From assembly GCA_963662275.1 (NCBI GenBank), contig OY759316.1, positions 2,595,820 through 2,659,819 of the forward strand: a DNA stretch of 64,000 bases, in the 5' to 3' direction. This stretch comes from Candidatus Cloacimonadales bacterium (GTDB taxonomy: Bacteria > Cloacimonadota > Cloacimonadia > Cloacimonadales > DAONDQ01). Positions 18,780-63,447 of the stretch are shown piece after piece. Both the position numbers and the translations under genes were made by a program. Within the stretch, counting starts at the first letter, position 1. The number at the start of each line of letters is the position of its first letter. The notes under the pieces are model-generated. The model made no database searches and had not been told where the DNA came from. It was given only the letters and a program-made list of their open reading frames with translations.

Positions 18780-19260
18780 AATTTCGAACTTCGAACTTCG
18801 AACTTCGTACTTCCCATGATCCCCGTAGGGAAGAAACATATTAACACTGGATTTTAATCCGGTGATATGATAAATGTGATCTAAAGGTCTCTCCGGAACG
18901 CTGTTTTCAAACGGCTATGCAGGTTTTAAGGCGCATTGCCATGACCCCTGCTCTGCTTGAATTCAATCCGTAGGATGTCACTCTGTTAGCCCAGGAAGTC
19001 CGTTCTCTGAACTGCAAATCTTCACTCTTCCATCTTCGAACTCCAAATCTTCAATCATCCATTTTCAATCTTCAATCAAAGCACTCTACTCTCCTCTCTT
19101 TCTTGGCTCTACAGAACCATAATTGAACCCCTTAATTTATACCAGTTTCAATCTAGTTTCAATCCTGTTTCATTCCTGTTTCGTCAAATAGGATAGAGAT
19201 TGGTAGGGGATTGGTAGGGGATTGGATTTTGATTGGTAGTGTCTTTGGGGTTCGAATTGT
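18780..19260. repeat. Composite intergenic repeat cluster (TTCGAAC heptamer tandem, ATTGGTAGGGG x2, TCTTCAATC repeats, plus dispersed elements shared with 44880-45260)
   Basis: Direct reading: ttcgaacttcgaacttcgaacttcgtactt; ttggtaggggattggtaggggattgg. caatccgtaggatgt...agcccaggaagtcc and ccagtttcaatcctgtttcg also occur at ~45.0-45.23 kb. Confidence 0.7.
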
Positions 19261-22458: not shown

Positions 22459-23781
22459 ATGATTAATAAGAAGCAAATCAAAACCAGAGAAACCTTGCAA
22501 GTAAAATTGTTACAATTTCTGAATAATTTTAGAGAAACGCAATCTCTACCTGTGTATAAGTTCATACAGGATATCTGCTTAGGGATACTGAAAAGTAAAT
22601 CTGTAATTATGCTCCAAATAGCGAAACAGCTAAATGAACCAATCACGGTTAAAAAGCTCTGCGAACGTTTCACCCGACATTTGAATAAGAAGCCCTTAGG
22701 AGATAAGCTGCAAGCGGAAATAATTAGGCATCAGTGCCAGGGTTTTGATGATGAGACAGGCATCATAGTTGATGAAAGTGATATCGTAAAAACCAAAGCC
22801 AAAAAGATGGAGGGATTGCAGAAGGTGCGTGATGGCAGCACCGGCAGTCATGATCAGCAGGGCTATGCATTGCTGAATATAATTGCCTATCAGGCAGGCA
22901 GTACAGGCTATGAGATAAAACCCATCAGTTCAGACCTGATAGCCCGAAACATGGAACTGGATAGCGTCTCTCAGATCATGGAAGACCGGCTAGTGGGGAT
23001 TATTCTTGCAAGTGGTAACCGTGGAGTAACTATTTTCGACCGTGGCTTTGACAACCGAAATCTATTCAGCTTTCTGCATGAACATGGACTAAGCTATATC
23101 ATCAGATCAACAGGTGAAAGAAGTCTTATCATGGATGGCTGCGAACAGAACTTCATGGCAGTGGCAAAGACAGTGAAACTCGATCATACATTCAATCTGC
23201 AAGAATCAGGACAACAGATAAAATGTGGTTTAACGCGGGTGAAGCTGCGTTTGAATCCTTACCCTGTAAAATACCCTGATACTACAGATGCCTGGCTTAT
23301 TGTTGCACAGTTCAGTCCCGATGCTAGTGGCAGACAGGGATATTTCTATTTCATCTGCGACTTTCCGACACAACCTTATCTGACGGAAAATGCTATCATG
23401 GAGAAGGTTTTGCGGATGTATCGCATACGCTGGAAAATCGAAGAGGTCCATCGCCATATCAAGCAGGAATATGGTTGGGAAAAGATACAACTGAAATCAT
23501 ATACCCGTCTGAAAAACATGAACCAGCTGCTTCTGCTAGCTATGTGCTACCTGTATTCTCTGAAAAAGTATGCTGGCGTATTTTTAGATGCCTTCCCAAA
23601 TCTTATGAAATACTCAAATAAACAGTGGAAGCAGATATATGACTTTGTGTATTATCGTCTGTCAATGCTGATAGAGATGTGTTTTGCCACCGTGACAAGG
23701 TACAGGCTCAATCCTTTTGCAGGAAAATGGCTGGATAATCAGCAGCTAAAAATTCCTGGTTTGAAAAACGGGGGGATGTGA
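22459..23781 (+). CDS. DDE transposase, IS4/IS701-like
   Basis: Candidate DDE residues in IVDESDIVK, TIFDRGFDN, WKIEEVHRHIKQEYGWE; the C-terminal YR/K region is typical of IS4-type enzymes. Element ends not resolved. Confidence 0.65.
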   Translation: MINKKQIKTRETLQVKLLQFLNNFRETQSLPVYKFIQDICLGILKSKSVIMLQIAKQLNEPITVKKLCERFTRHLNKKPLGDKLQAEIIRHQCQGFDDETGIIVDESDIVKTKAKKMEGLQKVRDGSTGSHDQQGYALLNIIAYQAGSTGYEIKPISSDLIARNMELDSVSQIMEDRLVGIILASGNRGVTIFDRGFDNRNLFSFLHEHGLSYIIRSTGERSLIMDGCEQNFMAVAKTVKLDHTFNLQESGQQIKCGLTRVKLRLNPYPVKYPDTTDAWLIVAQFSPDASGRQGYFYFICDFPTQPYLTENAIMEKVLRMYRIRWKIEEVHRHIKQEYGWEKIQLKSYTRLKNMNQLLLLAMCYLYSLKKYAGVFLDAFPNLMKYSNKQWKQIYDFVYYRLSMLIEMCFATVTRYRLNPFAGKWLDNQQLKIPGLKNGGM

Positions 23782-23837: not shown

Positions 23838-23914
23838 TCGGGATGTAGCGCAGCTCGGTAGCGCGTTCGGTTCGGGACCGAAAGGTCGCTGGTTCAAATC
23901 CAGTCATCCCGACC
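23838..23914 (+). tRNA. tRNA-Pro (anticodon CGG), CCA encoded
   Basis: Cloverleaf folded by hand: acceptor CGGGATG/CATCCCG, D-stem GCGC/GCGC, anticodon stem TTCGG/CCGAA with loop TTCGGGA, T-arm GCTGG-TTCAAAT-CCAGT, discriminator A + CCA. Closely resembles bacterial proK. Confidence 0.85.
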
Positions 23915-23999
23915 ATTTTTTTAAGCTCGAGTGCTTTGCTTCACTGCTGTGAAGTAATATGACAGATATGTTAGTAACAGTTTAATTTATGTTCTAGAT

Positions 24000-24100
24000 A
24001 TGTATGAATTGATTGTTTAGTAGGATCGGAATCCTACTCCATGAAAAGATTTAAGTAGGAACGGCGTCCTACTCTACGAGAAGACAGCAAGAACGGCGTC
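24000..24100. repeat. REP-like palindromic hairpin cluster (GTAGGA-ACGGCG-TCCTAC and GCAAGA-ACGGCG-TCTTGC family)
   Basis: Perfect short palindromes gtaggatcggaatcctac, gtaggaacggcgtcctac, gcaagaacggcgtcttgc. Same family as the 60-bp units at 62238-62400. Confidence 0.7.
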
Positions 24101-25972
24101 TTGCTTTACAACGCAATAAGAGGTAACATGTCCGAATTGCAGAAGCCTGAGATCAAGCTGGAAGTAAGGAAGAACCTGAAGAAGCTTCTCCCCTATATCT
24201 GGAAGGACAAGTACCTTTTCCTCTTCGGGCTTATCGCCATGATCATCACTTCCGGCATGAGACTTTTAGACCCTCTTATCCTGGCTCATATCATTGATTA
24301 CAGCGTTCCCAAGCACAACATGAAGGATATGTTCACCTATGCCGGATACTTCATTGGTGTGATAGCCTTATCAGGCTTACTATCCTATATCCAGATCATC
24401 CTGCTCTCTCGATTGGGAATCAAGATCATTACTGAATTCAAAGGGCATATCTTTGATCATTTATTAAAGCTGCCAATTTCCTATTTTGATAAGAACGCCG
24501 TCGGTGAGATCATCGCCCGTGTAGAAAGTGACAGTGAACGCGTTCGCATGCTCTTCACAGACTTGTCCGTAGCGATATTGGGTAATATCATTTTCTTCAT
24601 TGGTATCTTCAGTGTGCTGCTTGTTAAGCAATGGAAAATCACATCACAATTGATTGTACCACTTATCGTTATCATCGTTCTTTATTCATTTGTCATTCGA
24701 TATTTGAATAAGTTCTATAAGCGTTCTCGTGTCCTAAATGCGGATATCACTGCCAAGCTGACAGAGTTTTTACAGGGTATGCCCATTATCCAACTGTTCA
24801 ATCAGCAGAAGCGAATTACTGCAAATTTATTCAAATCCAGCAACGAAAAGAAGGATGTGGATATCAAGGCTTCTTTTGTGGAATATGGCTTCCAAGGGTT
24901 CTTTTTCTTCGTTTTTAACATACTTTTCATGATACTCATCATCTTACTCTCGGCACCGAAGATCATCGCCCATACTATGACGATTGGAACTCTCATCGTG
25001 TTTACGCAATATATCGCCCGTGTGATCTGGCCTCTGATGAATATCTCGGAGAACATCACCAACATCCAGAGAGCTTTTGTTTCCCTGCAGCGTATCTTCT
25101 CCATTACTGAATTGAAGACAGAATATGAAACCCTGGAAGGGAATGCAGAGCCGGTCTTCAATCATTCAATCGAATTCAGGAATGTCTGGTTTGCCTATGA
25201 TGAAAATGAATGGGTACTGCAGGATGTGAGCTTCTTCATTCCCAAAGGCGGAAAGATTGCCCTCGTTGGAGCTTCCGGTAGCGGTAAGACAACCACAATT
25301 AGTCTTATCTGCGGTTTCTACCGAATCCAGAAAGGTGAAATTCTGATTGATGGTGTGAATCTCTACAGCCTGGATATGAAAAAATGGAGACAGAAACTGG
25401 GATTGATTCTCCAGGATATCTATCTCTTCCCGGGTAACATTTTAGAGAATGTACGCATCTACAATGATGAGATAGATCAGTTGCAGGTTGATAAGGCAAT
25501 TCGATTAGTGCAGGCACAGGACTTTGTGAACCAACTGCCACATGGCTTATACTCAGAGCTGGCTGAAAGAGGACAGAATATCTCTCAGGGAGAAAAGCAG
25601 CTTATAAGCTTTGCTAGGGCGATTTGCTTTGAACCGGAAGTCGTCATTATGGACGAAGCAACTGCTTCCATTGACCAGCTCACGGAATCCCGCATCCAGA
25701 ATTCATTGCACACTATGCTGGAAGACAAAACGGCTATTATCGTGGCGCACCGGCTTGCTTCCATACTGGATTCAGATGAAATACTCATGTTTCATGAGGG
25801 TAAGATCATCCATCGGGGAAATCACAATGAATTGTTAGAAACATCGATAGAGTATAAAAGACTTGTAGAATTGCAGTTCTTATCAAATACAAATGAAGAG
25901 AGTTCGCCAAACCAAGAAGAATTGGCGAAGCGGAATTCGCCAAACCGAGAAGAGGATGCCAGCCATGAATGA
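24101..25972 (+). CDS. ABC exporter, fused permease/ATP-binding subunit (MsbA-like), partner 1
   Basis: Six N-terminal TM helices; Walker A GASGSGKTT, signature LSQGEKQLISFARAI, Walker B VIMDEATASID. Confidence 0.9.
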   Translation: MLYNAIRGNMSELQKPEIKLEVRKNLKKLLPYIWKDKYLFLFGLIAMIITSGMRLLDPLILAHIIDYSVPKHNMKDMFTYAGYFIGVIALSGLLSYIQIILLSRLGIKIITEFKGHIFDHLLKLPISYFDKNAVGEIIARVESDSERVRMLFTDLSVAILGNIIFFIGIFSVLLVKQWKITSQLIVPLIVIIVLYSFVIRYLNKFYKRSRVLNADITAKLTEFLQGMPIIQLFNQQKRITANLFKSSNEKKDVDIKASFVEYGFQGFFFFVFNILFMILIILLSAPKIIAHTMTIGTLIVFTQYIARVIWPLMNISENITNIQRAFVSLQRIFSITELKTEYETLEGNAEPVFNHSIEFRNVWFAYDENEWVLQDVSFFIPKGGKIALVGASGSGKTTTISLICGFYRIQKGEILIDGVNLYSLDMKKWRQKLGLILQDIYLFPGNILENVRIYNDEIDQLQVDKAIRLVQAQDFVNQLPHGLYSELAERGQNISQGEKQLISFARAICFEPEVVIMDEATASIDQLTESRIQNSLHTMLEDKTAIIVAHRLASILDSDEILMFHEGKIIHRGNHNELLETSIEYKRLVELQFLSNTNEESSPNQEELAKRNSPNREEDASHE

Positions 25973-27719: not shown

Positions 27720-27974
27720 CAGAAGGTTATAGGTTATAGGTTCTAGGGGCTGGGTGTTAGATAGTAGATTTGAAGATCGGTTCATATCGATACAATTTCT
27801 CCTGCGTCGAAATCACTCAATGAACCGTATCTTTTATCCTTCTCTGAACCTGATACCTGTGACCTGACACCTGAAACCTAGCTTGATGAAAATAATTATT
27901 GACTGAAAACATGATTCGAATTTCAAAAACCTCTAGAGAATAGATTAAACATACTTCCAAAAGGAGTTCGTTAA

Positions 27975-44862: not shown

Positions 44863-44879
44863 GCTTTTTAAATCGAATA

Positions 44880-45260
44880 GATAAAGACAATCAAATCCAG
44901 TACAAAATTCACTTTCGTCCAGTAACTCCGCATTTACGCGGTTGTAGAGTAGCTCCGCTTTTACACGGTTGTAGAGCTGGATGCCGATCATGCTGTCTGC
45001 TATACAATCCGTAGGATGTAATTCTGCTAGCCCAGGAAGTCCTTCCTGGGTTGAGCGATGTAAGAGGAATAACCGCCTGCAGCTTGTGCTGCATGAGTCC
45101 ATTAGGACGGCACTATTTGCCGTATTCTCCAATCACTTAATACATTCCTCATTATATATACCTGGTCAAAACCAAATTTAAACAAATCCTAATCCTGTTT
45201 CATTCCAATTTCCCGAAACAGGATTGAAACTGGTATAATATACGTGGAATAATAGTGGAC
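44880..45260. repeat. Composite intergenic repeat cluster (27-bp GTTGTAGAG tandem, cccagg...cctggg palindrome, cgaaacaggattgaaactgg inverted copy of the 19.1-kb element)
   Basis: Shared ~45-bp segment caatccgtaggatgt.a.tctg.tagcccaggaagtcc with 18961-19005; aatcctgtttc/gaaacaggatt hairpin. Confidence 0.7.
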
Positions 45261-45332
45261 TTGAATTCGCAGAAGTAGAGACGCCCAAGTTGGGCGTCTC
45301 TACAAGGGGAGGATAGACACATGGGTCTATCC

Positions 45333-46979: not shown

Positions 46980-47221
46980 TGGTACTCCTTATTTCTACAA
47001 CCCACAGAATATAAAATATAATATTTATACGTAATTTTCATTCCATTGCTAGTTTTATCCAGTATCTTGCCGGATAGTATCCATTTTCTCTTTAGTCTAT
47101 CACGTTTTTGTTAATTGCATAGCTGTTTCTGGGGCGCCATCTATCTGATGGTGCTACGTGCTCTTTTAGAGGACGTATTCTCTTCACCGGCATTTCGATG
47201 GGGAAAATCACCGGATGACGG

Positions 47222-47337
47222 ATCATGTTAAAACATAATAACGGCTGAAGCAGTTGATCCAACGACTGAAGATCATGTTAAAACATAATAACTGCTGAAG
47301 CAGTTGATCCAACGACTGAAGTTGTTGCTACGGTGCT
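47222..47337. repeat. 58-bp direct tandem repeat x2 immediately downstream of the M28-T9SS gene
   Basis: atcatgttaaaacataataac[g/t]gctgaagcagttgatccaacgactgaag repeated twice with one mismatch. Confidence 0.8.
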
Positions 47338-47338
47338 G

Positions 47339-50233
47339 CTATTTCAGTAGCAGCATCTTCCTGGTTATGTTTATCTTATCCGTTTCCAGCCGGTAAAAAT
47401 AGATACCAGAAGATACTTGCTTGCTATTATCATCTTTCCCGTTCCAAAGAATTGAATAAGATCCTGCTTGTCTGTTGTCATTTACAAGTGTCCTGACTTT
47501 TTGACCTTTGACATTATAAACACAAAGAACAACTTTGGAAGTCTTTGCCAGGGAATACTTGAGTGTTGTTTCCGGATTAAACGGATTGGGATAATTTTGT
47601 TCAAGCTTGTTGGTAGATGCAATCGGAACTGTAGAATCATTATTTCCAACAGGTTCATTGAATTTATTCATGAGAATATACTCAACAAATTGTTTTGCTT
47701 GAGTTTGGTTCATGTTCCACAAAGGAAAACTTAAAACTACAGTATTATAATCTTCTCCAAAATACCCGATACCCACATCTGTACCATTCAAAATTCCTTG
47801 CGAAGCAGTATTCGCATAATCAGACCCGTAAGTATAGAGCACTTCCCCACCAGGAGCTGCAGCAAGACCTTCAATTTTAAAAATATGGTGATTCAGTGCA
47901 GCCGCTGATTTAAGACTATCAACCCTCATGGCAGGATAATCGATATTACTTGGTATAGCATATTTAAATCGCGCTGAAGTAGAATAGCTAACTCCTGAAA
48001 TTTTAAACATATCATATAGGAAATCTCCGGTTACAAATGTCTTGGGATAAAAACTGTTCAAATCCCATGCATAGGTTGGCTGATAAGTAGATATCAGGAT
48101 ATTTCCCCCATACCCGAGGTATTCCTGTAATGCACTTCGGGAAGGATATGCTTGCTCAACCCCTACAGCCGTATTGCAGTGCCAAATGATCGTCGAAAAT
48201 GCCCCGAAATCAGCCAGTTTAGGCTGAGGATCAACTGTCAGATCGTAAAGCGTTCTTCGATAATCACTTAACAATTCATTATAATAATCATCCACTTGGA
48301 CATCTGAAGGCTGAAGATAACTGGAACCACTCCCATTGGCAGTGCCATCAACAATCAAAACACCCTTGTTCAAAGAAACAGCTCGCGAATAGATCTGCTC
48401 AGAAGCATTACTGAGGTTACCTGCCAAATCTTCAGTTTTCACAGTGTAATAGTAATACACTCCATCTTCTACAGCATTATCCACATAGGATGCGTTTGTA
48501 CATAAGGAAGGATTGATCAGTGTTCCAAGTTCTCCTGCTGTTGTCGAACGATAGATACGATAACCGACAATATCCAACTCAAGATTGGCTTCCCATGATA
48601 AATCAACCTGGTGCAATACCGGGTGATCGATTAAATTTGTTGGTGTTCGTGGAATCATATATGGGACTGCTTCCTTCACTGTAATAATACTTTCGAAATT
48701 GGCTGAATTCAGACAACTAAACCCAATATGATATTGCGTGCCTGAAAGAAGACCTTCCACAATTGTTTGTGTTCCATTTACTGTAATTGTTTGATTCCAG
48801 ACCTCTGTTGAATCTGCGACATATACTTTATATTGGGTAATGTCTTGTTCAGGAGAAGGTTCCCAGCTTATTTTCAAAGAATTACCCAGTCCGGTATCTT
48901 GGATTTGGAAATCCGTAATAGGGTATGGCATACTTGACATCGTAGCTCCACAAGCTACAGAACTCTTTATGACCCTGGAGCAGAAATCCATGTCTAAATG
49001 GATGAATAAATCATCACCGGTATGGTAGAAAGGCGAAAAATCCAGTTCTTCGAAATATATCGAAGGAATACCATGTAACCAAAAATTATATGAATCTGAT
49101 CCGGCGCTATCATATAATCCTCTAATCGGAACAAGATCCGTATAGGTTGTTGTCATATTTCCGGCAAATAGTGTGTAAGAATCGAAACCCGTATATGGCT
49201 GTAAAAGAACATAATCGGAGACATAATTATCATCGTGAGTTGCGATCATATCATGATTGATCATCAATTTGACCTGGGTTCCGTTAGTTAATAAGTCTTG
49301 AACATAAGCCTGGCTTCCCAGTAATCCCATCTCTTCACAGGCAAAGGCAACAAACCGAAAAGTGCAGGCAGGTTGGTAATTCATCAGTTTAAAGACACGT
49401 GCTGTTTCCAGAACTGCTGCAATACCACTTGCATTATCATCAGCACCCGGACAGTTAATCAAGGGATCTGCAGTACCGAATGAAATATTATCATCGCTAT
49501 GAGCACCAATAATGATATTCTTCTCGGGCGTAGTAACACCAGGTAATGTAGCAACGACATTATACTGTGGTATATCCTCGTACAAAAAAGTATTGATCAC
49601 AACATCTGTATAACCCATCCTAAGGAATTGATCCCGAATCCAGTTATCTACTGCGGGATGAGTGACCGCTGCGTAAAAGCGTGTCCCGAAATCCTGCAAA
49701 TGCTGAATGAATGATCCGATACTGTCAGGATTCACCTGGTTTACCAGATCCTGGATTTCAGTTCTTGATTGAAGATTTGATACAGGAGCCTTCATTTTCT
49801 GATTCTGATAATATGAAGGTACATTTGTAAGTGGAATTGCCATGTAACCGGTTTGAAATAAAAGTGATTTGATATTTGTATTCGTCTTAACCAAAATCTG
49901 GAACTCACTCTGCCAAAGTAAAGTACCCCAGGCAGAATTCCATTTTATGGGTTTATGCGATTCGGATGTGATAATATAGGTTTGCGATAAATCCATATTA
50001 TGATCTATGATCGAATAAGGTATCCTACTCAAACTGGCAAGTTTACCTGAATCAATACCGATGAAAAGAATATCTCCATTTCTATGATAAACCGGTAATT
50101 TCAATTGTTCAAAAGCATTATGATTTGAGATTTGAGTTAGATCGATCTTGACCAGGATTTTCTGGTTTTGTGCAAATAGCGGGATACAGATGAGTAACAT
50201 TACAAAAAAAAGAAGTGAATATTTAAAATTCAT
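47339..50233 (-). CDS. Secreted M28-family peptidase with fibronectin-III-like domains and T9SS C-terminal sorting domain (964 aa)
   Basis: Signal peptide; M28 motifs HSDDNISFG...ADDNASGIAAVLE and FACEEMGLLGS; C-terminal NYPNPFNPETTLKY...LCVYNVKGQKV...GIYFYRL CTD. Confidence 0.8.
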   Translation of the reverse strand: MNFKYSLLFFVMLLICIPLFAQNQKILVKIDLTQISNHNAFEQLKLPVYHRNGDILFIGIDSGKLASLSRIPYSIIDHNMDLSQTYIITSESHKPIKWNSAWGTLLWQSEFQILVKTNTNIKSLLFQTGYMAIPLTNVPSYYQNQKMKAPVSNLQSRTEIQDLVNQVNPDSIGSFIQHLQDFGTRFYAAVTHPAVDNWIRDQFLRMGYTDVVINTFLYEDIPQYNVVATLPGVTTPEKNIIIGAHSDDNISFGTADPLINCPGADDNASGIAAVLETARVFKLMNYQPACTFRFVAFACEEMGLLGSQAYVQDLLTNGTQVKLMINHDMIATHDDNYVSDYVLLQPYTGFDSYTLFAGNMTTTYTDLVPIRGLYDSAGSDSYNFWLHGIPSIYFEELDFSPFYHTGDDLFIHLDMDFCSRVIKSSVACGATMSSMPYPITDFQIQDTGLGNSLKISWEPSPEQDITQYKVYVADSTEVWNQTITVNGTQTIVEGLLSGTQYHIGFSCLNSANFESIITVKEAVPYMIPRTPTNLIDHPVLHQVDLSWEANLELDIVGYRIYRSTTAGELGTLINPSLCTNASYVDNAVEDGVYYYYTVKTEDLAGNLSNASEQIYSRAVSLNKGVLIVDGTANGSGSSYLQPSDVQVDDYYNELLSDYRRTLYDLTVDPQPKLADFGAFSTIIWHCNTAVGVEQAYPSRSALQEYLGYGGNILISTYQPTYAWDLNSFYPKTFVTGDFLYDMFKISGVSYSTSARFKYAIPSNIDYPAMRVDSLKSAAALNHHIFKIEGLAAAPGGEVLYTYGSDYANTASQGILNGTDVGIGYFGEDYNTVVLSFPLWNMNQTQAKQFVEYILMNKFNEPVGNNDSTVPIASTNKLEQNYPNPFNPETTLKYSLAKTSKVVLCVYNVKGQKVRTLVNDNRQAGSYSILWNGKDDNSKQVSSGIYFYRLETDKINITRKMLLLK

Positions 50234-56592: not shown

Positions 56593-57903
56593 ATGTTAGT
56601 AAGATTTTCTGTACAGAATTTTCTCTCATTTGGAGATAAAGCTGAATTGGCGATGTTTGCATCAAGAGTGAAAGCTCATCCTGAACAAGTTTGTAATTTG
56701 AATATCAAGCCTGTTTCAAAGTTGCTGAAATTAGCTTTGATTTTTGGACCGAATGCCTCCGGGAAATCGAACTTGGTTAAAGCGATGGATTTTGCTAGAA
56801 GATGCATTGTTGGAAAACCTGGTTTCTCCAATATAGATACAACCTATTTTAAACTACAAGACCCCATTGAATCCACTGCTAGTAACTTTGACTTTGAAAT
56901 TCTGGTTGATAAGACACTCTATAGATATGGGTTCATTTATGATAAGGATACTTATCCGTCAGAATGGTTATATAAAATTACTAAAAGTGGATATAGCCCA
57001 TTATATGTTAGAAATGCTAATAAAAATGAACGTAACATCGAATGGGATGACAAACTCTTTAAAACGAAAAAAGACAGGGAATTCTATAATTTTGTGAACA
57101 AAGGAGTTCCACACACTCAGCTTCTGCTATCGGAATTAGGAAAGAAGGAACTGGAATTATTTCTACCTCTATATCAATGGTTTACGAAATTGATCATCAT
57201 GTACCCCAAAACAGAATTTAAGAATTATCCCATGATTTTTCGCAAACCTGAATTACAGAATCTCTATAAAGATATGTTTAGTAACTGCGATACTGGAATA
57301 GAAGGAATAGACTTTGAAAAAACTGAATTCAAAGAAATTGAATTGCAGCTTCCCGACCAGTTACTCAAGGATATGTTACAGGATATCCCTAAAGTGGATC
57401 ATACTTTAGTATCTTTAAATCTGCCTAAGGGAAGGTATCTTTTAGAATATGACCATATGAAACCGACCCTATATAAGCTTCTCTTTAAGCATGTTATCAA
57501 ATCTACTGGAAGAGAAGTGAAATTCGATTTCCCTGAAGAATCAGATGGAACATTGCGCTTATTTGATCTGATTCCTTTATTGGGAGACACAAAAAATGAT
57601 AGAGTTATTGTCATTGATGAGTTAGATCGTAGTTTACATCCTCTATTAACAAAAAAACTGATTACGGAATGTTTGAAGATGGGGCTGAATAATCAATCTC
57701 AACTAATTGCGACTTCTCATGACTCCAATTTACTGGATACAGATATCATCAGAAGAGATGCAGTTTGGTTTGTCAGAAAGACGGCAGATATGTCTTCAGA
57801 AATATACTCCTTAGAAGAATTTAAACCCAGAAATGATAAAGAACTTCGGAATGCGTATTTGGAGGGCTTATATGGTGCAACTCCCATTTTCAGAAATTGT
57901 TGA
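56593..57903 (+). CDS. AAA_21/ABC-like ATPase of an AbiL/OLD-like two-gene defense module
   Basis: Walker A FGPNASGKSN, Walker B VIVIDELDRSLHP, LIATSHDSNLL; AGGAGA RBS. Confidence 0.8.
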   Translation: MLVRFSVQNFLSFGDKAELAMFASRVKAHPEQVCNLNIKPVSKLLKLALIFGPNASGKSNLVKAMDFARRCIVGKPGFSNIDTTYFKLQDPIESTASNFDFEILVDKTLYRYGFIYDKDTYPSEWLYKITKSGYSPLYVRNANKNERNIEWDDKLFKTKKDREFYNFVNKGVPHTQLLLSELGKKELELFLPLYQWFTKLIIMYPKTEFKNYPMIFRKPELQNLYKDMFSNCDTGIEGIDFEKTEFKEIELQLPDQLLKDMLQDIPKVDHTLVSLNLPKGRYLLEYDHMKPTLYKLLFKHVIKSTGREVKFDFPEESDGTLRLFDLIPLLGDTKNDRVIVIDELDRSLHPLLTKKLITECLKMGLNNQSQLIATSHDSNLLDTDIIRRDAVWFVRKTADMSSEIYSLEEFKPRNDKELRNAYLEGLYGATPIFRNC

Positions 57904-58534
57904 TGAATTAGATTTTAAAACGCAATTTCAAAGAAAATCCAAGTTCAGGGAACCCGTCCTTTTCCTTATCGCATGCGAAGGAATCAAAGATGAGCCAACA
58001 TATATCAATGAGTTTGTGAAGTTCTATCACATTGATCAAGCCAGTGTTAAAATCGCTGAAAGAAAGCCAGGAGATAGAAGTTCGGATCCTTTGAGCATCA
58101 TTGAGATTTTGAGCGATAATTTAAAGGATATCAAATCGATCAATATCAAAAGATCAATACATCCCTGGATATTAATTGATAGAGATGATCGATTAAAAGA
58201 GACTCTTGAATCAGCTAAGAGATGCTGTGATGAACTTGGTTATAATATTGCATTCAGTTGCCCGTGCATAGAGCTTTGGTTTTTACTCCACTATAAAGAT
58301 ATCAATAAGTTGGATTCAAATCTGAGAACTAAATTATTGAATTCCCAAGCATTAAAGAAATACTTAATTAAGAACCATTTGGATTTGCAGACTAACTTAA
58401 GCTCGATGTTCCTTAATACTAATGATGCAATTCAAAGAGCAAAAGAAATAGATTATATCACAGTCGATTTCCCAGCAACACATTGTACAAAAGTTTACCG
58501 ACTTATTGAGAAACTGTTGGAGTTGATCGATTGA
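57872..58534 (+). CDS. RloB-like (TOPRIM-like, AbiLii-type) protein partner of the AAA ATPase
   Basis: N-terminal REPVLFLIACEGIKDEPTYINEF matches the RloB hallmark (ILIVCEGEKTEPNYF). Start placed at ATG 57872 with a GGAGGG RBS, overlapping the ATPase by 32 nt. Confidence 0.7.
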   Translation: MVQLPFSEIVDELDFKTQFQRKSKFREPVLFLIACEGIKDEPTYINEFVKFYHIDQASVKIAERKPGDRSSDPLSIIEILSDNLKDIKSINIKRSIHPWILIDRDDRLKETLESAKRCCDELGYNIAFSCPCIELWFLLHYKDINKLDSNLRTKLLNSQALKKYLIKNHLDLQTNLSSMFLNTNDAIQRAKEIDYITVDFPATHCTKVYRLIEKLLELID

Positions 58535-58659
58535 TAAATAAAGCTAAGTTTGGGAGGTGCTTCACGAAAATCATCGAAAATTGTTGCAACGAATTATGTT
58601 GCATAGAGATAAGAAATAAAAAAGTATGAAAAGAAAACATAAGAATAAATGGAGTTTAC

Positions 58660-60759
58660 ATGACAAATGACTATTTGAAAATAATATCTGATGCTCCCTT
58701 AAAAAGTTTGAATGAGATTAGAAATGACAATCGGATGCTAGATTATAAATTATACGTCGAGAATATCTTTGAGCACATTAGAACTTATCAAGATAAAAGT
58801 AGTATCACCATAGGTATTGAAGGTACATGGGGATCGGGGAAAAGTACTATTCAAAATTTTTTAATAGAGAGAATCAAAACTTATATTACTGAAGAAGGTA
58901 ATAAAGATGCATACAAAATTATTGAGTTTAATCCATGGTATTTTACAGATTGCTCAAATTTAATCAGTCAATTTTTCCAACATATGTCTAACACGCTCCA
59001 AAAAGAGAAGAAATTACTTGGTAAGGTTAGCAAAGGGCTAGAAGACTTATCCAGAGTGTTGAATCCAGCATCAACTATTCTTATGGCAACTCTACCTCAT
59101 ATAGGACTAATTGTTAAAGGTGCTGCAAAATACACACAACAAATGGCAGAGCAATTAAAACCCAAACAAAATGATATTTTTGAAATAAAAAATAAGTTAG
59201 AAGCACTTCTTTCAGATAAAATGCTAAAAACAAAAATAATTGTATTCATCGATGACTTGGACAGGATGCCTCAAAAAGATATAAGGGCTATTCTTCAAAT
59301 GATAAAATCTGTAGGTAACTTATCAAATATTATTTACATCATTTCGTATGATAGACAAATCGTCTCTTCAGCAGTTAAAGAAGAAAATGTAGATAGAAAT
59401 GAATATTTGGAAAAGATAATACAAGCTGTTGTTCGGGTTCCTGTCCCATATTATGAAGATATTTATAATTCAATTCATGATCATTTTCCTTCACATGATG
59501 CATATGATGAACATATGGATTGCCGGTTAAAAGGAGTAATTGATTATCTTGCAAGAAGAGGGATAACATATAGGCAGATTAAACAAATAATGAACAGGTT
59601 TTCATATCGAAGAAGATTTGATTTTAATTGCCTAAGTCATTATGATCTTTTTTTATTATCAATTCTTGAGGCATTGTATCCTAAAGTTTATGCGTTAATT
59701 TTACAAATAAAACCAATTAATTTTCATATCTCAAACACAGATGAATTTAATAGTTTCAGCAAACGCAAGCAAATTTTCAAGGATTCAGTTAATGAATTAC
59801 CAGAAATGAAAAATGGAATTTATTCCGTTGACAGTAACCAGAGAGCTCCAATAGACAACTACACACTGGTATCTTTACTTATTAAATCGTTACTCAATAT
59901 AGATATCTATTCAAAAGAAGTTAATCCATATCAGGATAAGTTTAATTTTCAAACTATTGAAGAAAAAGCTCACAAATTTAGAATGTTAGATCATAATTAC
60001 TTTGAATATTATTTTTCATTTAGTGATTTTCAAGATTGTACTTTTTCTACATATAAAGAAGTCCTTAAGGGTATTCGGAGCAATGATTTTGGAGCTTTAG
60101 AACCAGTAAATTCAAAATTTCTAATTGCTTTTTTGTTTCTATGTATATCCACTTTTGCAATCGATGATTTTGATGCCTATATTCAAATAATAGACTATAT
60201 GACAAATCTCAATTACATAGATAATGAAAATAAGTATTACTATATTCTAACAAGATTCATTGAGATGTGCTTAAACAGCGAGAAAACAAAACAAATGCTT
60301 TTATCAGTTTATATAGAGAAATCCCATAAAATTGATTATATGATGATAATAGATGATTGGTTAAAAATGCATGTTAATGATGACCAAAAAATAGTAGATA
60401 AATTCCGAGTTGTTTTAAAAGAGAATATCGTATTACAAAAAGATTGTTTACAAGTAAGTCCAAGTTACAAACAAATATTATGGATTGTTTTAGAAAATTA
60501 TGAAGAAAAAGAAATGAAAAATCTTATAACTGAGCAAGTTGCAACAAACGAGGGATTGCTGGACTTATTATGGGGAGTTAGTGATAAGGAGGCAAATGGT
60601 GTCATTGCAGAAATAAGTAAAGAGAAAATAGAAAAACTTCAGGATCCACAGATTATCTTAACTAGATTGGAAAACATAATAAAAACTGATCTATTTGCCA
60701 GTCTGTCCACGGATAAAAAAACTGCAATTAATGATTTAATACACTATATTGAAACTTGA
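58660..60759 (+). CDS. KAP-family P-loop NTPase (699 aa)
   Basis: GIEGTWGSGKST Walker A and IVFIDDLDRMPQKD Walker B, in the arrangement typical of KAP NTPases. Confidence 0.75.
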   Translation: MTNDYLKIISDAPLKSLNEIRNDNRMLDYKLYVENIFEHIRTYQDKSSITIGIEGTWGSGKSTIQNFLIERIKTYITEEGNKDAYKIIEFNPWYFTDCSNLISQFFQHMSNTLQKEKKLLGKVSKGLEDLSRVLNPASTILMATLPHIGLIVKGAAKYTQQMAEQLKPKQNDIFEIKNKLEALLSDKMLKTKIIVFIDDLDRMPQKDIRAILQMIKSVGNLSNIIYIISYDRQIVSSAVKEENVDRNEYLEKIIQAVVRVPVPYYEDIYNSIHDHFPSHDAYDEHMDCRLKGVIDYLARRGITYRQIKQIMNRFSYRRRFDFNCLSHYDLFLLSILEALYPKVYALILQIKPINFHISNTDEFNSFSKRKQIFKDSVNELPEMKNGIYSVDSNQRAPIDNYTLVSLLIKSLLNIDIYSKEVNPYQDKFNFQTIEEKAHKFRMLDHNYFEYYFSFSDFQDCTFSTYKEVLKGIRSNDFGALEPVNSKFLIAFLFLCISTFAIDDFDAYIQIIDYMTNLNYIDNENKYYYILTRFIEMCLNSEKTKQMLLSVYIEKSHKIDYMMIIDDWLKMHVNDDQKIVDKFRVVLKENIVLQKDCLQVSPSYKQILWIVLENYEEKEMKNLITEQVATNEGLLDLLWGVSDKEANGVIAEISKEKIEKLQDPQIILTRLENIIKTDLFASLSTDKKTAINDLIHYIET

Positions 60760-60973: not shown

Positions 60974-62221
60974 CTACAAGCTATCAGCTTCTTCCTTCCA
61001 CTCCAAAGCGATCTCCTTTCCTTTCTTTTCATTCACAAACTGGAGAAGGACTCCACCCACAAAGAAGAAAGCAATAAGTGATAATATTGACCAGCGCTGG
61101 GAACCGGTACGTAGGGCAATTTCACCATAGACAAGGGGACCGAAGATAGAGGAAAGTCTTCCGGTTACAGCATAGAAACCAAAGAATTCAGCCTGTTTAT
61201 CTATTGGTGTGAGGAGAGCCAGTAATGTCCGGCTGTTAGCCTGGCTGGAGCCGATTGCGAGTCCGGCTGTCATACCCACAAAGTAGTATTCCAGTTTCGT
61301 CGAACAAAAGAAAGCCCAAATGACCACACCTGTCCAGATGAACAGGCTCAGTGTCAGGGCACGCTTGGCACCGATTCTATCCGTCAGCAGACCAAAAAGA
61401 TAAGAACCGAGTATTGACGTAACCTGAGCCAGGATAAAATACTTGATGATTTCCTGCTGATTCATGCCAAATTGATTCACACCGTAGATCGCAGCAAAGA
61501 CGATCACAGTAATGATACCATCATTGTAAATCAAGTAGGCAACCAGGAATTTGCCTAGTTCCCTGAATTGAAAAAGATGAGTTATTGTAAATTTAATTCT
61601 CTGGTACGCAACCCTATAATAATTCGTCCTTTTAGAGGGTCGTTTAAACTCTTTCAGCCACATTAAGGTGAAGATGGCAAACGATCCAAAGAAAAGAGCG
61701 ACCGCCGGGAAAACATAGCGTATGTTCCATTTAACAATAAAAAGGGAAATGACCAGGGATAACAAACCACCTACATAGCCTAAAGCCCAGCCCATACCGG
61801 ATACTTTTCCCATATTTTCATGGGAAGATATCTCGGGTAGAAAAGCATCATAGAAGACATTGGCACTATTGAACCCGAAATTGGCAATGATAAAGAACAG
61901 CATACCGATGAATACATCTCCCCGCTGCACGAAATAAAGCAAAGCCGTGAATATCACAGCCAGGTAGCAATTCAGGAAGAGAAATCGTTTCTTTGCCCTG
62001 GAGAAATCAGCAACTGCACCAAAGATCGGGGCAGAGATTGCCACCAAAGCCATGGATATACTGATTGCTCTTCCCCATAGCGCTGTCCCCAGCTCCTGGT
62101 TATTAGGGACGACAACTTTCATAAAATAGGCACTGTAAATAACGGTTACAATGATTGTGGTAAAAGAGGAATTGGCAAAATCATACATCATCCAGCCGAC
62201 GAGATTGCGATTTAATTTCAC
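60974..62221 (-). CDS. MFS transporter (12 TM)
   Basis: Hydrophobic 12-helix profile; GTG start at 62221. Confidence 0.7.
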   Translation of the reverse strand: MKLNRNLVGWMMYDFANSSFTTIIVTVIYSAYFMKVVVPNNQELGTALWGRAISISMALVAISAPIFGAVADFSRAKKRFLFLNCYLAVIFTALLYFVQRGDVFIGMLFFIIANFGFNSANVFYDAFLPEISSHENMGKVSGMGWALGYVGGLLSLVISLFIVKWNIRYVFPAVALFFGSFAIFTLMWLKEFKRPSKRTNYYRVAYQRIKFTITHLFQFRELGKFLVAYLIYNDGIITVIVFAAIYGVNQFGMNQQEIIKYFILAQVTSILGSYLFGLLTDRIGAKRALTLSLFIWTGVVIWAFFCSTKLEYYFVGMTAGLAIGSSQANSRTLLALLTPIDKQAEFFGFYAVTGRLSSIFGPLVYGEIALRTGSQRWSILSLIAFFFVGGVLLQFVNEKKGKEIALEWKEEADSL

Positions 62222-63447
62222 AGAGAAACTCCGGGTTCAGCAGGAACGGCGTCATACTCTACACAGACAGCAAGATCGGCGTCTTGCTCTACTACTTCAG
62301 CAGGAACGGCGTCATACTCTACACAGACAGCAAGATCGGCGTCTTGCTCTACTACTTCAGCAGGAACGGCGTCCTGCTCTACAGGGACATCCATGTGAAT
62401 AACTGGCAGCTTATAATCCTTGTATAAATCCAGGTTAGGTGTAGCAATAAACACCTGGTTCTTCGTTGACATCATGGAGATGATCTGTTTTGTACGGATT
62501 GCATCCAAATCGGATAGTACATCATCAAAAATCAGGATGGGGTTTTCGTTTTCATGATTTTGGACAAGTTGAGCCTGGGTAAGTCTCATACATATCGCCA
62601 ATGAGCGTTGTTGTCCCTGAGAGCCGTAATCACGAGCCTGGTGACCATTAATAAGAAAAAGAATATCATCCAAGTGTGGACCGATCAATGATCTTTGGTA
62701 GGCAATTTCCTTCTGTCCACGCTGTTTCACATAAGCCAGGAAGTCTTCATGCACGGTGTCCGAATATTCATCAATTTCGGCAGCACAATACACGACATCG
62801 GTTGTCTCTTTGGCAGTACTGATTTTTGCGTAGTTCTCTTTGAACAAAGGTGTAAAAATAGACAGATAACGTTTTCGAGCTTCAACAACCATGACCCCGG
62901 CTTCCATGAATTTCTCATCCCATACTTTCTTGATTTGGGAATCAAAAGGAGTTTTCAGCATGGCATTCCGCTGTTGAAGGATATGCAGGTAATTCCTGAG
63001 GATTTCAATATAGGAATAATCATATTGGGCAATTGCCTGGTCAAAGAAATGTCTCCGTAACCTCGGAGAACCGGATATGACCATGATATCACCTGGTGAA
63101 AAGTAGATGATCTTCAAATAACGATACAGTTCGCTGAGTTTCTTTAAAGGTTCTTTATCCAAGAGGATGTTTTTCTTCCCCCCAGAGAAATTAACGCTGA
63201 TTTGAAGAGGATTTTCACGGTATTGGAAGAATCCAGCCAAATGAAAAGCACTTTGGTTAAAACGCATGACTTCAGCATCGGGAGCAGATCGAATCGACTT
63301 CCCGTAAGCAGAATAGGCGATAGCTTCCAGTAAATTGGTTTTGCCAATACCGTTTTTCCCTGTAATTAATGCACCTTCCGGTGCGAAAGTCATATCGCAG
63401 TCTGCAAAGTTACGAAAGTTCTGCAGATGAATGCGATTTATATACAA
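62218..63447 (-). CDS. recF: DNA replication/repair protein RecF with repeat-encoded C-terminal tail
   Basis: N-terminus MYINRIHLQNFRNFADCDMTFAPEGALITGKNGIGKTNLLEAIAYS; follows dnaN. The ORF continues ~50 aa past the usual RecF end through the REP array. Confidence 0.9.
   Translation of the reverse strand: MYINRIHLQNFRNFADCDMTFAPEGALITGKNGIGKTNLLEAIAYSAYGKSIRSAPDAEVMRFNQSAFHLAGFFQYRENPLQISVNFSGGKKNILLDKEPLKKLSELYRYLKIIYFSPGDIMVISGSPRLRRHFFDQAIAQYDYSYIEILRNYLHILQQRNAMLKTPFDSQIKKVWDEKFMEAGVMVVEARKRYLSIFTPLFKENYAKISTAKETTDVVYCAAEIDEYSDTVHEDFLAYVKQRGQKEIAYQRSLIGPHLDDILFLINGHQARDYGSQGQQRSLAICMRLTQAQLVQNHENENPILIFDDVLSDLDAIRTKQIISMMSTKNQVFIATPNLDLYKDYKLPVIHMDVPVEQDAVPAEVVEQDADLAVCVEYDAVPAEVVEQDADLAVCVEYDAVPAEPGVSL
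62225..62400. repeat. Tandem array (2.7 copies) of a 60-bp REP-like double-hairpin unit, in frame with the 3' end of recF
   Basis: cagcaggaacggcgtcatactctacacagacagcaagatcggcgtcttgctctactactt repeated exactly from 62238; contains gcaaga-tcggcg-tcttgc and gcagga-acggcg-tcctgc palindromes. Confidence 0.85.

Follow-up and report, generated by a model that had tools for sequence, protein, structure and literature searches.

The recF gene in a 64,000-nucleotide (nt) stretch of contig OY759316.1 from a Candidatus Cloacimonadales bacterium (the window) carries near its 3' end an array of five contiguous 30-nt units. The array occupies positions 62236-62385 on the minus strand and lies in frame within recF. 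The evidence supports the view that these are five head-to-tail, GTAG-tagged elements of the repetitive extragenic palindromic (REP) type, in which a GTAGAG head is followed by a 7-bp stem with a 6-nt CGCCG(T/A) loop. We consider it probable, at about 0.75, that a REP array has expanded within recF as a passenger and that the tail it adds to the protein is tolerated rather than selected. An earlier reading made from the sequence alone (the sequence-only reading) had proposed a REP-like repeat array translated as a C-terminal tail of RecF, and this proposal has held up, given the GTAG(AG) head, a covarying hairpin, and the recurrence of the unit in intergenic DNA.

The repeat array and its family

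Tandem Repeats Finder describes the array either with a period of 60 (62236-62383, 2.5 copies, 97% matches) or with a period of 30 (4.9 copies, 76% matches). The 60-mers at 62240-62299 and 62300-62359 are identical, and no such pair occurs in shuffles of the window. In the direction in which recF is read, the units are named U1 to U5 (Table 1), and all five are headed by GTAGAG. U1 is identical to U3 at 26/30 positions and to U2 at 22/30, while U2 and U3 agree at 21/30. The sequence-only reading had counted 2.7 exact copies of a 60-bp unit; there are instead two exact 60-nt copies and one diverged 30-nt unit, U1.

A hairpin with a 7-bp stem and a 6-nt loop is present in three of the five units (U1, U2, and U4), with modelled DNA folds of -5.9 kcal/mol for U1 and -5.4 kcal/mol for U2. 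U3 and U5 are degenerate and unfolded. Two palindromes had been assigned to each 60-bp unit. The first, gcaaga-tcggcg-tcttgc, is indeed found in both full copies, but the second, gcagga-acggcg-tcctgc, has just one perfect occurrence, at 62359-62378; its counterpart in each full copy reads gcaggaacggcgtcatac, which does not fold.

Other identities for the array were tried and dropped. A CRISPR array would have unique spacers between its direct repeats, whereas these units abut without spacers. A miniature inverted-repeat transposable element was set aside because neither terminal inverted repeats nor target duplications are seen in the sequence, and an intrinsic terminator because the sequence has no T-run. 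No Rfam family matches the array; the sole Rfam match in the window is a tRNA-Pro.

Units of the same kind recur elsewhere. A covariance model (R1) was built from 32 units and applied, with its filters disabled, to the entire window; at E<1e-4 it finds only nine units: the five in recF, three at 24016-24112, and one at 44968-44997. Besides the recF array, the 64 kb thus contain another four units, divided between two intergenic sites. Within the 32 units, conservation reaches at least 90% at G4, T5, A6, and G7, and the stem begins at the next base. When 44 distinct units are compared, 98% of stem positions pair, far above controls with slid partners, and compensatory changes occur in five of the seven pairs (CG/UA, GC/AU, GC/CG, AU/UA, and AU/CG). 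Across the alignments compared, the paired share ranges over 98-99% and the compensated pairs number four to five.

Outside the window, a first, degenerate pattern of 22 nt was scanned over a collection holding one genome per species, to which the source genome does not belong. Most of its 68 matches are single chance matches in high-GC taxa, and four are in metagenome-assembled genomes of Cloacimonadota: one in Candidatus Cloacimonas sp. BF2_31 and the others on three contigs of HGW-Cloacimonetes-1, in unrelated and apparently intergenic contexts. All four extend past the pattern to the same 26-27-mer, CAGCAGGA(A/T)CGGCGTCCTGCTCTACA(G/T). An identical 27-mer lies in intergenic DNA of BF2_31, and the HGW-Cloacimonetes-1 contigs have either the same sequence or a one-base loop variant. 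The reverse complement of the 26-27-mer is GTAG-AGCAGGA-CGCCG(T/A)-TCCTGCT, that is, GTAG followed directly by a hairpin. A GTAG tetranucleotide directly preceding a hairpin is the published definition of a REP (PMC8266576; PMC3733652). A metagenome scan yielded 13 more contigs with the unit, in which it is mostly intergenic.

The recF array, the units at 24016-24112, and the arrays of two fetched loci (L079 and L085) are all arranged head-to-tail; inverted pairs are found only in loci L076 and L081. L079 and L085 are noncoding tandem arrays. L085 lies upstream of a gene, with a period of 30 and TAG stops in the sense frame, and L079 has a period of ~33. In the DNA covered, the family appears dispersed, chiefly intergenic, and often present as short tandem arrays. 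The family does not have the predominance of inverted dimers that characterises bacterial interspersed mosaic elements (BIMEs), which is a typical, not an obligatory, feature of REPs.

RecF ends in relatives and the history of the array

In an alignment with the closest relatives, the conserved core of RecF closes at ...LP(V/I)I.MD, which in the window protein is ...LPVIHMD, ending at residue 352. Beyond this point the relatives differ. Three of them (P0003, P0005, and P0006; 75-82% core identity) have 10-13 further residues of unrelated sequence. Two others have one copy of the 10-residue motif together with the last residues of the window protein: P0002 (86% core identity) ends in LEQDTVPAESGVSQ, and P0004 (81% core identity) ends, at the protein level, in VEQDSDPAEPGVLQ. 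The DNA of L002, the locus that encodes P0002, reads TTGGAGCAGGACACCGTTCCTGCTGAA TCCGGAGTCTCACAGTGA and aligns base for base with U1 and the native gene end once U2-U5 are removed. U1 is the counterpart of the single unit in L002 and P0004, and this single orthologue unit scores 37 bits with the covariance model. The model finds no unit at the recF ends of L003, L004, and L007; the L003 tail, CAGGAATGCT, was considered as a unit remnant and rejected, being too short to count and having no match to the model. The window genome has 120 additional in-frame nucleotides, (U2U3)x2, ahead of an intact gene end, and among the RecFs listed, the five-unit expansion is found only here. The sequence-only reading had raised the prospect that orthologues share the tail without repeats in their DNA. 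Two of them do share one tail unit, which, however, belongs to the repeat family as well.

The same reading had allowed that the true stop codon of recF might have been displaced by the array. The comparison does not support this: whether relatives carry a single unit or lack it, their final five codons, TGA, and stop/start overlap with the transporter gene downstream sit where those of the window gene do. L002, L003, and L007 share the stop codon, the 4-nt overlap, and the N-terminus of the transporter; in L004-L006 the recF TGA is instead placed some bases upstream of the transporter GTG.

The units of the array differ in their affinities. The closest match to U2 is the intergenic unit at 24083-24112, with 27/30 identical positions, compared with 22/30 for U1 and 21/30 for U3. 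The U2U3 block as a whole matches the intergenic dimer at 24051-24112 at 53/60 positions with two gaps. Since U2 is nearer to an intergenic unit than to either of its neighbours, the U2U3 block would have come from another array of the family and not from divergence of U1. Since U2U3 and U4U5 are identical, the last duplication would be very recent. On the simplest reading, the first unit was gained once, and an ancestor shared by this genome and at least two related lineages already had it. In a neighbour-joining tree of the RecF cores, the order of the window protein paired with P0002, of P0003, and of P0004 is nearly unresolved, and P0003 may possibly have lost the unit instead of never having had one.

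A history in three steps can be proposed. A REP unit would first have settled in the poorly constrained, hypervariable 3' end of recF. Recombination, gene conversion, or transposition would then have brought in the U2+U3 block from a different REP array. Last, and very recently, slippage during replication or an unequal exchange between the direct repeats would have duplicated U2+U3. Three properties may explain why the gene survived these events. Each unit has a length divisible by three. No sense frame other than the one used, VEQDA(V/D)PAE, is free of stops. The gene also kept its five native final codons, its stop, and the GTGA overlap through which the transporter gene is coupled.

The array might instead have a purely local origin, in which a native recF segment was duplicated in place by slippage and has no connection with any dispersed repeat. 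Simple in-place duplication was the first suggestion, made on the basis of the single motif copy at the same site in relatives and of a 60-mer search (up to three mismatches) that met no further copy in the window; a period that is an exact multiple of three and two identical 60-nt copies also fit such an origin. However, units with the same head, loop, and covarying stems also lie between genes, in unrelated contexts, both in the window and in other genomes, and U2 resembles an intergenic unit more than it resembles U1 or U3. These intergenic paralogues, found with a shorter degenerate pattern and the covariance model, ruled out simple in-place duplication. Slippage probably explains the last duplication but not where the units came from, and we regard a purely local origin as very improbable.

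Tandem repeats are also classic sites of misassembly, and two other arrays of the family (L079 and L085) lie at contig ends, which raises the question of whether the number of units has been inflated or collapsed, or whether an error masks a stop. Against this, the array is merely 150 nt long, and the same 391-residue product with the tail is encoded on two contigs (1.88 and 4.38 Mb), possibly non-independent records; L001, on the 1.88-Mb contig, is identical to the window across 4783 nt. An assembly artefact thus has very little probability.

The predicted tail and its possible roles

The recF frame had been said to stay open for ~50 codons past ...LPVIHMD, to yield a repetitive acidic peptide, and to end at the GTG start of a major facilitator superfamily (MFS) gene. 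All three statements are borne out: the tail has 57 residues, with the sequence DVPVEQDAVPAE(VVEQDADLAVCVEYDAVPAE)x2 PGVSL and a net charge of -16, and the recF TGA (62218-62220) and the transporter GTG start (62219-62221) overlap as GTGA. In an AlphaFold2 model made with a 66-sequence alignment, RecF has a mean pLDDT (predicted local distance difference test) of 86.5 with a confident core, while residues 359-409 have a pLDDT <50 and no secondary structure. The tail is thus predicted to be a disordered acidic C-terminal extension.

Units are found inside other open reading frames (ORFs) as well, in three of the few loci fetched (L078, L076, and L087). A RibD-like ORF in L078 (TIGR00326, E=1.4e-107) contains two units, AVEQDADPAQ and TVEQDAVPAQ, within a ~33-residue insert relative to Bacillus subtilis RibD (PDB 2b3z). 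Compared with PDB 8c8v, an IleRS-like ORF in L076 contains ~26 inserted residues, within which lie one unit read antisense (AGSASCST) and an inverted degenerate unit. In L087, a unit lies within the putative N-terminal extension of an RseC-like ORF. The frame that gives VEQDA... is the sole stop-free sense frame of the consensus unit, which is why RecF and the RibD-like ORF have the same peptide. All three antisense frames are open. For this reason, the plus-strand repetitive ORF at 62151-62402, which the sequence-only reading had also pointed out, does exist; it is most likely spurious.

The alternative to a tolerated tail is functional co-option: the acidic tail would modulate RecF by competing with DNA or partners, or hairpins in the mRNA, a short way upstream of the ribosome-binding site of the transporter gene, would tune translational coupling or mRNA stability. 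Several observations are consistent with such a role. The unit has been kept in at least three lineages; its synonymous sites are unusually conserved between the window and L002; the array lies just upstream of the GGAG that precedes the coupled GTG start; a tail with this charge is attached to a DNA-binding protein; and other Cloacimonadota RecFs (P0070, P0094, and P0096) have long acidic tails of unrelated sequence. Liang, Rudd and Deutscher are said to have found in 2015 that REPs near stop codons affect translation in E. coli. On the other side, the nearest unit-free relatives manage with tails of 10-13 residues, the expansion is confined to this genome among the RecFs listed, and two of the five units lack the hairpin. 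The RNA fold of the array region is only marginally steadier than that of shuffles (z=-1.87). In addition, the recurrence of the same peptide in the RibD-like ORF, and of an antisense peptide in the IleRS-like ORF, points to indiscriminate insertion. Co-option therefore appears unlikely. The sequence-only reading had spoken of a REP co-opted as coding sequence; that the repeat has become coding sequence is supported, but "co-opted" is better read as translated and tolerated. A more far-reaching version would have an undescribed GTAGAG-headed REP family, possibly without a REP-associated tyrosine transposase (RAYT), whose head-to-tail, codon-phased 30-nt arrays repeatedly seed acidic disordered segments in proteins of housekeeping and repair, with the RecF tail as a selected, quickly adjustable module that mimics DNA or competes for partners, or with the array tuning the coupling of recF and the transporter gene. 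This is a long shot.

The RecF C-terminus in Cloacimonadota seems generally to be unconstrained or prone to extension. P0070, P0093, P0094, and P0096 have tails of 20-45 residues whose sequences are unrelated, and of these P0070, P0094, and P0096 are clearly acidic. The sequence-only reading assumed recF to be essential, but in most studied bacteria it is dispensable.

Several points weigh against the passenger reading. The unit seems to replace a variable stretch of ~27 nt found in the unit-free relatives rather than to add to it, and the original event was therefore not a clean insertion. The third-codon positions of the unit are identical in 8/9 codons between the window and L002, compared with 55% in the recF core (p ~0.04 by our own binomial estimate); this gives a weak hint of DNA-level constraint or homogenisation of the unit, which would be unexpected for a neutral passenger. 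The stem statistics are biased, as units were selected or fitted with structure in mind. Moreover, the patterns used to retrieve the other loci came from the unit itself, so that the number of loci is uninformative about abundance. A RAYT was not found by tblastn in ~0.68 Mb with an approximate E. coli YafM query, a weak test; the best E-values were ~7 in the window and 0.28 overall, the latter at an unrelated locus. REP families and transposase genes are not always found together (PMC3733652). Finally, translation of the tail is predicted only from its open frame.

Neighbouring sequence, related systems, and significance

Table 1. Coordinates of the recF array, its relatives in the window, and the adjoining genes
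Feature	Position	Strand	Description
Unit U1	62356-62385	minus	CCTGTAGAGCAGGACGCCGTTCCTGCTGAA, PVEQDAVPAE; perfect 7-bp stem, 6-nt loop; covariance model R1, 47.9 bits
Unit U2	62326-62355	minus	GTAGTAGAGCAAGACGCCGATCTTGCTGTC, VVEQDADLAV; perfect hairpin, compensated stem CAAGA/TCTTG
Unit U3	62296-62325	minus	TGTGTAGAGTATGACGCCGTTCCTGCTGAA, CVEYDAVPAE; degenerate stem, no predicted fold
Units U4+U5	62236-62295	minus	Exact 60-nt copy of U2+U3 (62296-62355), 100% identity; U4=U2, U5=U3
Native recF end	62218-62235	minus	CCC GGA GTT TCT CTG TGA (PGVSL*); G-V/I-S/T-x* in relatives
RecF tail	62221-62391	minus	57 codons past conserved ...LPVIHMD; net charge -16, no K/R/H
Antisense ORF	62151-62402	plus	83 residues, built of the open antisense frame of the repeat
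recF coding sequence	62218-63447	minus	409 residues, TTG start immediately behind dnaN stop; fold core is residues 1 to ~355
ATG22/MFS-type transporter gene	60974-62221	minus	Pfam ATG22, E=1.1e-58; directly downstream of recF
Intergenic trimer	24016-24045, 24051-24080, 24083-24112	minus	Head-to-tail, downstream of tRNA-Pro
Degenerate intergenic unit	44968-44997	plus	GTTGTAGAGCTGGATGCCGATCATGCTGTC; covariance model 25.8 bits, E=1.2e-5; among other GTAGAG-headed hairpins (44921-45332)

The identity of the gene is well defined. The product matches TIGR00611 (RecF) over residues 3-336 of 409, with E=1.5e-94 and 317 bits against a cut-off of 172; its Pfam match is SMC_N, its best database matches are Cloacimonadota RecFs, and dnaN adjoins it upstream. 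The full-length score above the curated cut-off and the dnaN-recF synteny thus place it in the RecF family. Database calls for P0001-P0004 and P0006 begin at an internal ATG and drop 18 conserved residues, MYINRIHLQNFRNFADCD, encoded at 63394-63447 (minus strand). These residues of the window protein align with P0005, and the TTG at 63445-63447, which abuts the dnaN stop, is the likelier recF start. As a point of annotation, the database calls seem to place the start of these RecFs 18 codons too far in.

Downstream, the transporter has an N-terminus, MKLNRNLxGWMxYDFA, that is kept among relatives. The native recF end contains GGAG (62229-62232), 8 nt upstream of the transporter GTG and 4 nt beyond the end of the array; it is a putative Shine-Dalgarno sequence for the transporter gene. 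The transporter gene is adjoined by a block encoding an AAA_21 ATPase, an RloB-like protein, and a KAP-family P-loop NTPase (56593-60759). In L004-L006 and the 9.7-kb contig of P0002, a 228-residue ORF and/or phosphoglycerate kinase is found instead, and the block looks like a variable, defence-type island.

The intergenic trimer has neighbours of its own. In order of position, a DDE_Tnp_1 transposase gene (22459-23781) comes first, then tRNA-Pro(CGG) at 23839-23915, then the trimer. The last REP unit is overlapped by the TTG start (24101) of an ABC-transporter ORF, and this start is probably placed too far upstream.

Other repeats are present in the window and in relatives. The region from 44863 to 45332, between convergent genes for a TPR protein and a protein with FG-GAP repeats and a type IX secretion system (T9SS) tail, is packed with hairpins. 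It includes two 27-nt tandem units ending in GTAGAG (44921-44976), CCCAGGAAGTCCTTCCTGGG at 45031-45050, a palindrome with a 12-bp stem, GTAGAGACGCCCAAGTTGGGCGTCTCTAC, at 45275-45303, and GGATAGACACATGGGTCTATCC at 45311-45332. These hairpins look like other sub-families of GTAGAG-headed repeats. A stretch of ~38 nt, AATCCGTAGGATGT.A.TCTG.TAGCCCAGGAAGTCC, occurs in two intergenic regions (18968-19005 and 45008-45045), and CCTGTTTCATTCC motifs recur near each (19160-19182 and 45195-45215), which suggests mosaic intergenic repeat modules beyond the REP family studied. The intergenic region 18783-19225 also contains TTCGAAC x4.4, a 29-mer x2, an 11-mer x3.7, and GATTGGTAGGG x2.5. At 47221-47321 a 50-nt unit is present twice with 98% identity. 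A hairpin with an 8-bp stem (47334-47355) overlaps the stop codon (47339-47341) at the 3' end of a gene for an M28 peptidase with a T9SS tail (47339-50233, minus strand). In BF2_31 (L018, 1299-1480), a REP unit adjoins a long (GGTGACA)n heptamer array; the window has a short, similar heptamer run (AACCTGA / CACCTGA) at 27847-27879.

The family resembles the GTAG REPs (PMC3733652; Corneloup et al. 2021, PMC8266576) in its short stem-loop right after a conserved GTAG, in its apparently dispersed, chiefly intergenic, and often grouped copies, and in the presence of some copies in frame inside ORFs, including replication and repair genes, with some at the COOH end. Intragenic GTAG REPs, many of them in repair genes, were catalogued by Di Nocera, De Gregorio and Rocco in 2013 (PMC3733652); ~10% occupy the COOH end, and there are clusters that encode 43-82 amino acids. 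Unlike the GTAG REPs described, the present family is mostly head-to-tail with a period of 30-35 nt, its head-head or tail-tail dimers (BIMEs) are rare, its head is the hexamer GTAGAG, and no RAYT gene has been linked to it. The main text of PMC3733652 mentions neither Cloacimonadota nor recF, PMC6006769 does not mention the phylum, and a literature search on REP or RAYT in Cloacimonas/Cloacamonas returned nothing relevant.

The Rickettsia palindromic elements (RPEs; reviewed in PMC10969869) are likewise palindromic repeats found in frame in unrelated housekeeping genes and translated. However, each RPE is ~100-150 bp with a conserved peptide of ~30-50 amino acids, compared with 30 nt (10 amino acids) for the units here; RPEs are usually single insertions, whereas the recF array is a five-unit tandem; and there is no sequence relation. 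The likeness is one of behaviour (in-frame insertion), not of membership. Slippage expansions in coding regions share the last step, an exact 60-nt duplication in reading phase, but they expand native segments, and the unit repeated here belongs to a dispersed family.

For annotation, the long RecF tail and the antisense ORF serve as a warning, as both are by-products of a repeat. Intragenic GTAG REPs are already known, and the array in recF is most likely harmless; it would pose a new biological question only if the tail or the hairpins proved functional. The array is a clear case of a selfish hairpin repeat turned into protein sequence in a DNA-repair gene, whose steps can be retraced through relatives that have zero, one, or five units, and it widens the range of intragenic GTAG REPs to include a candidate phylum without an earlier report.

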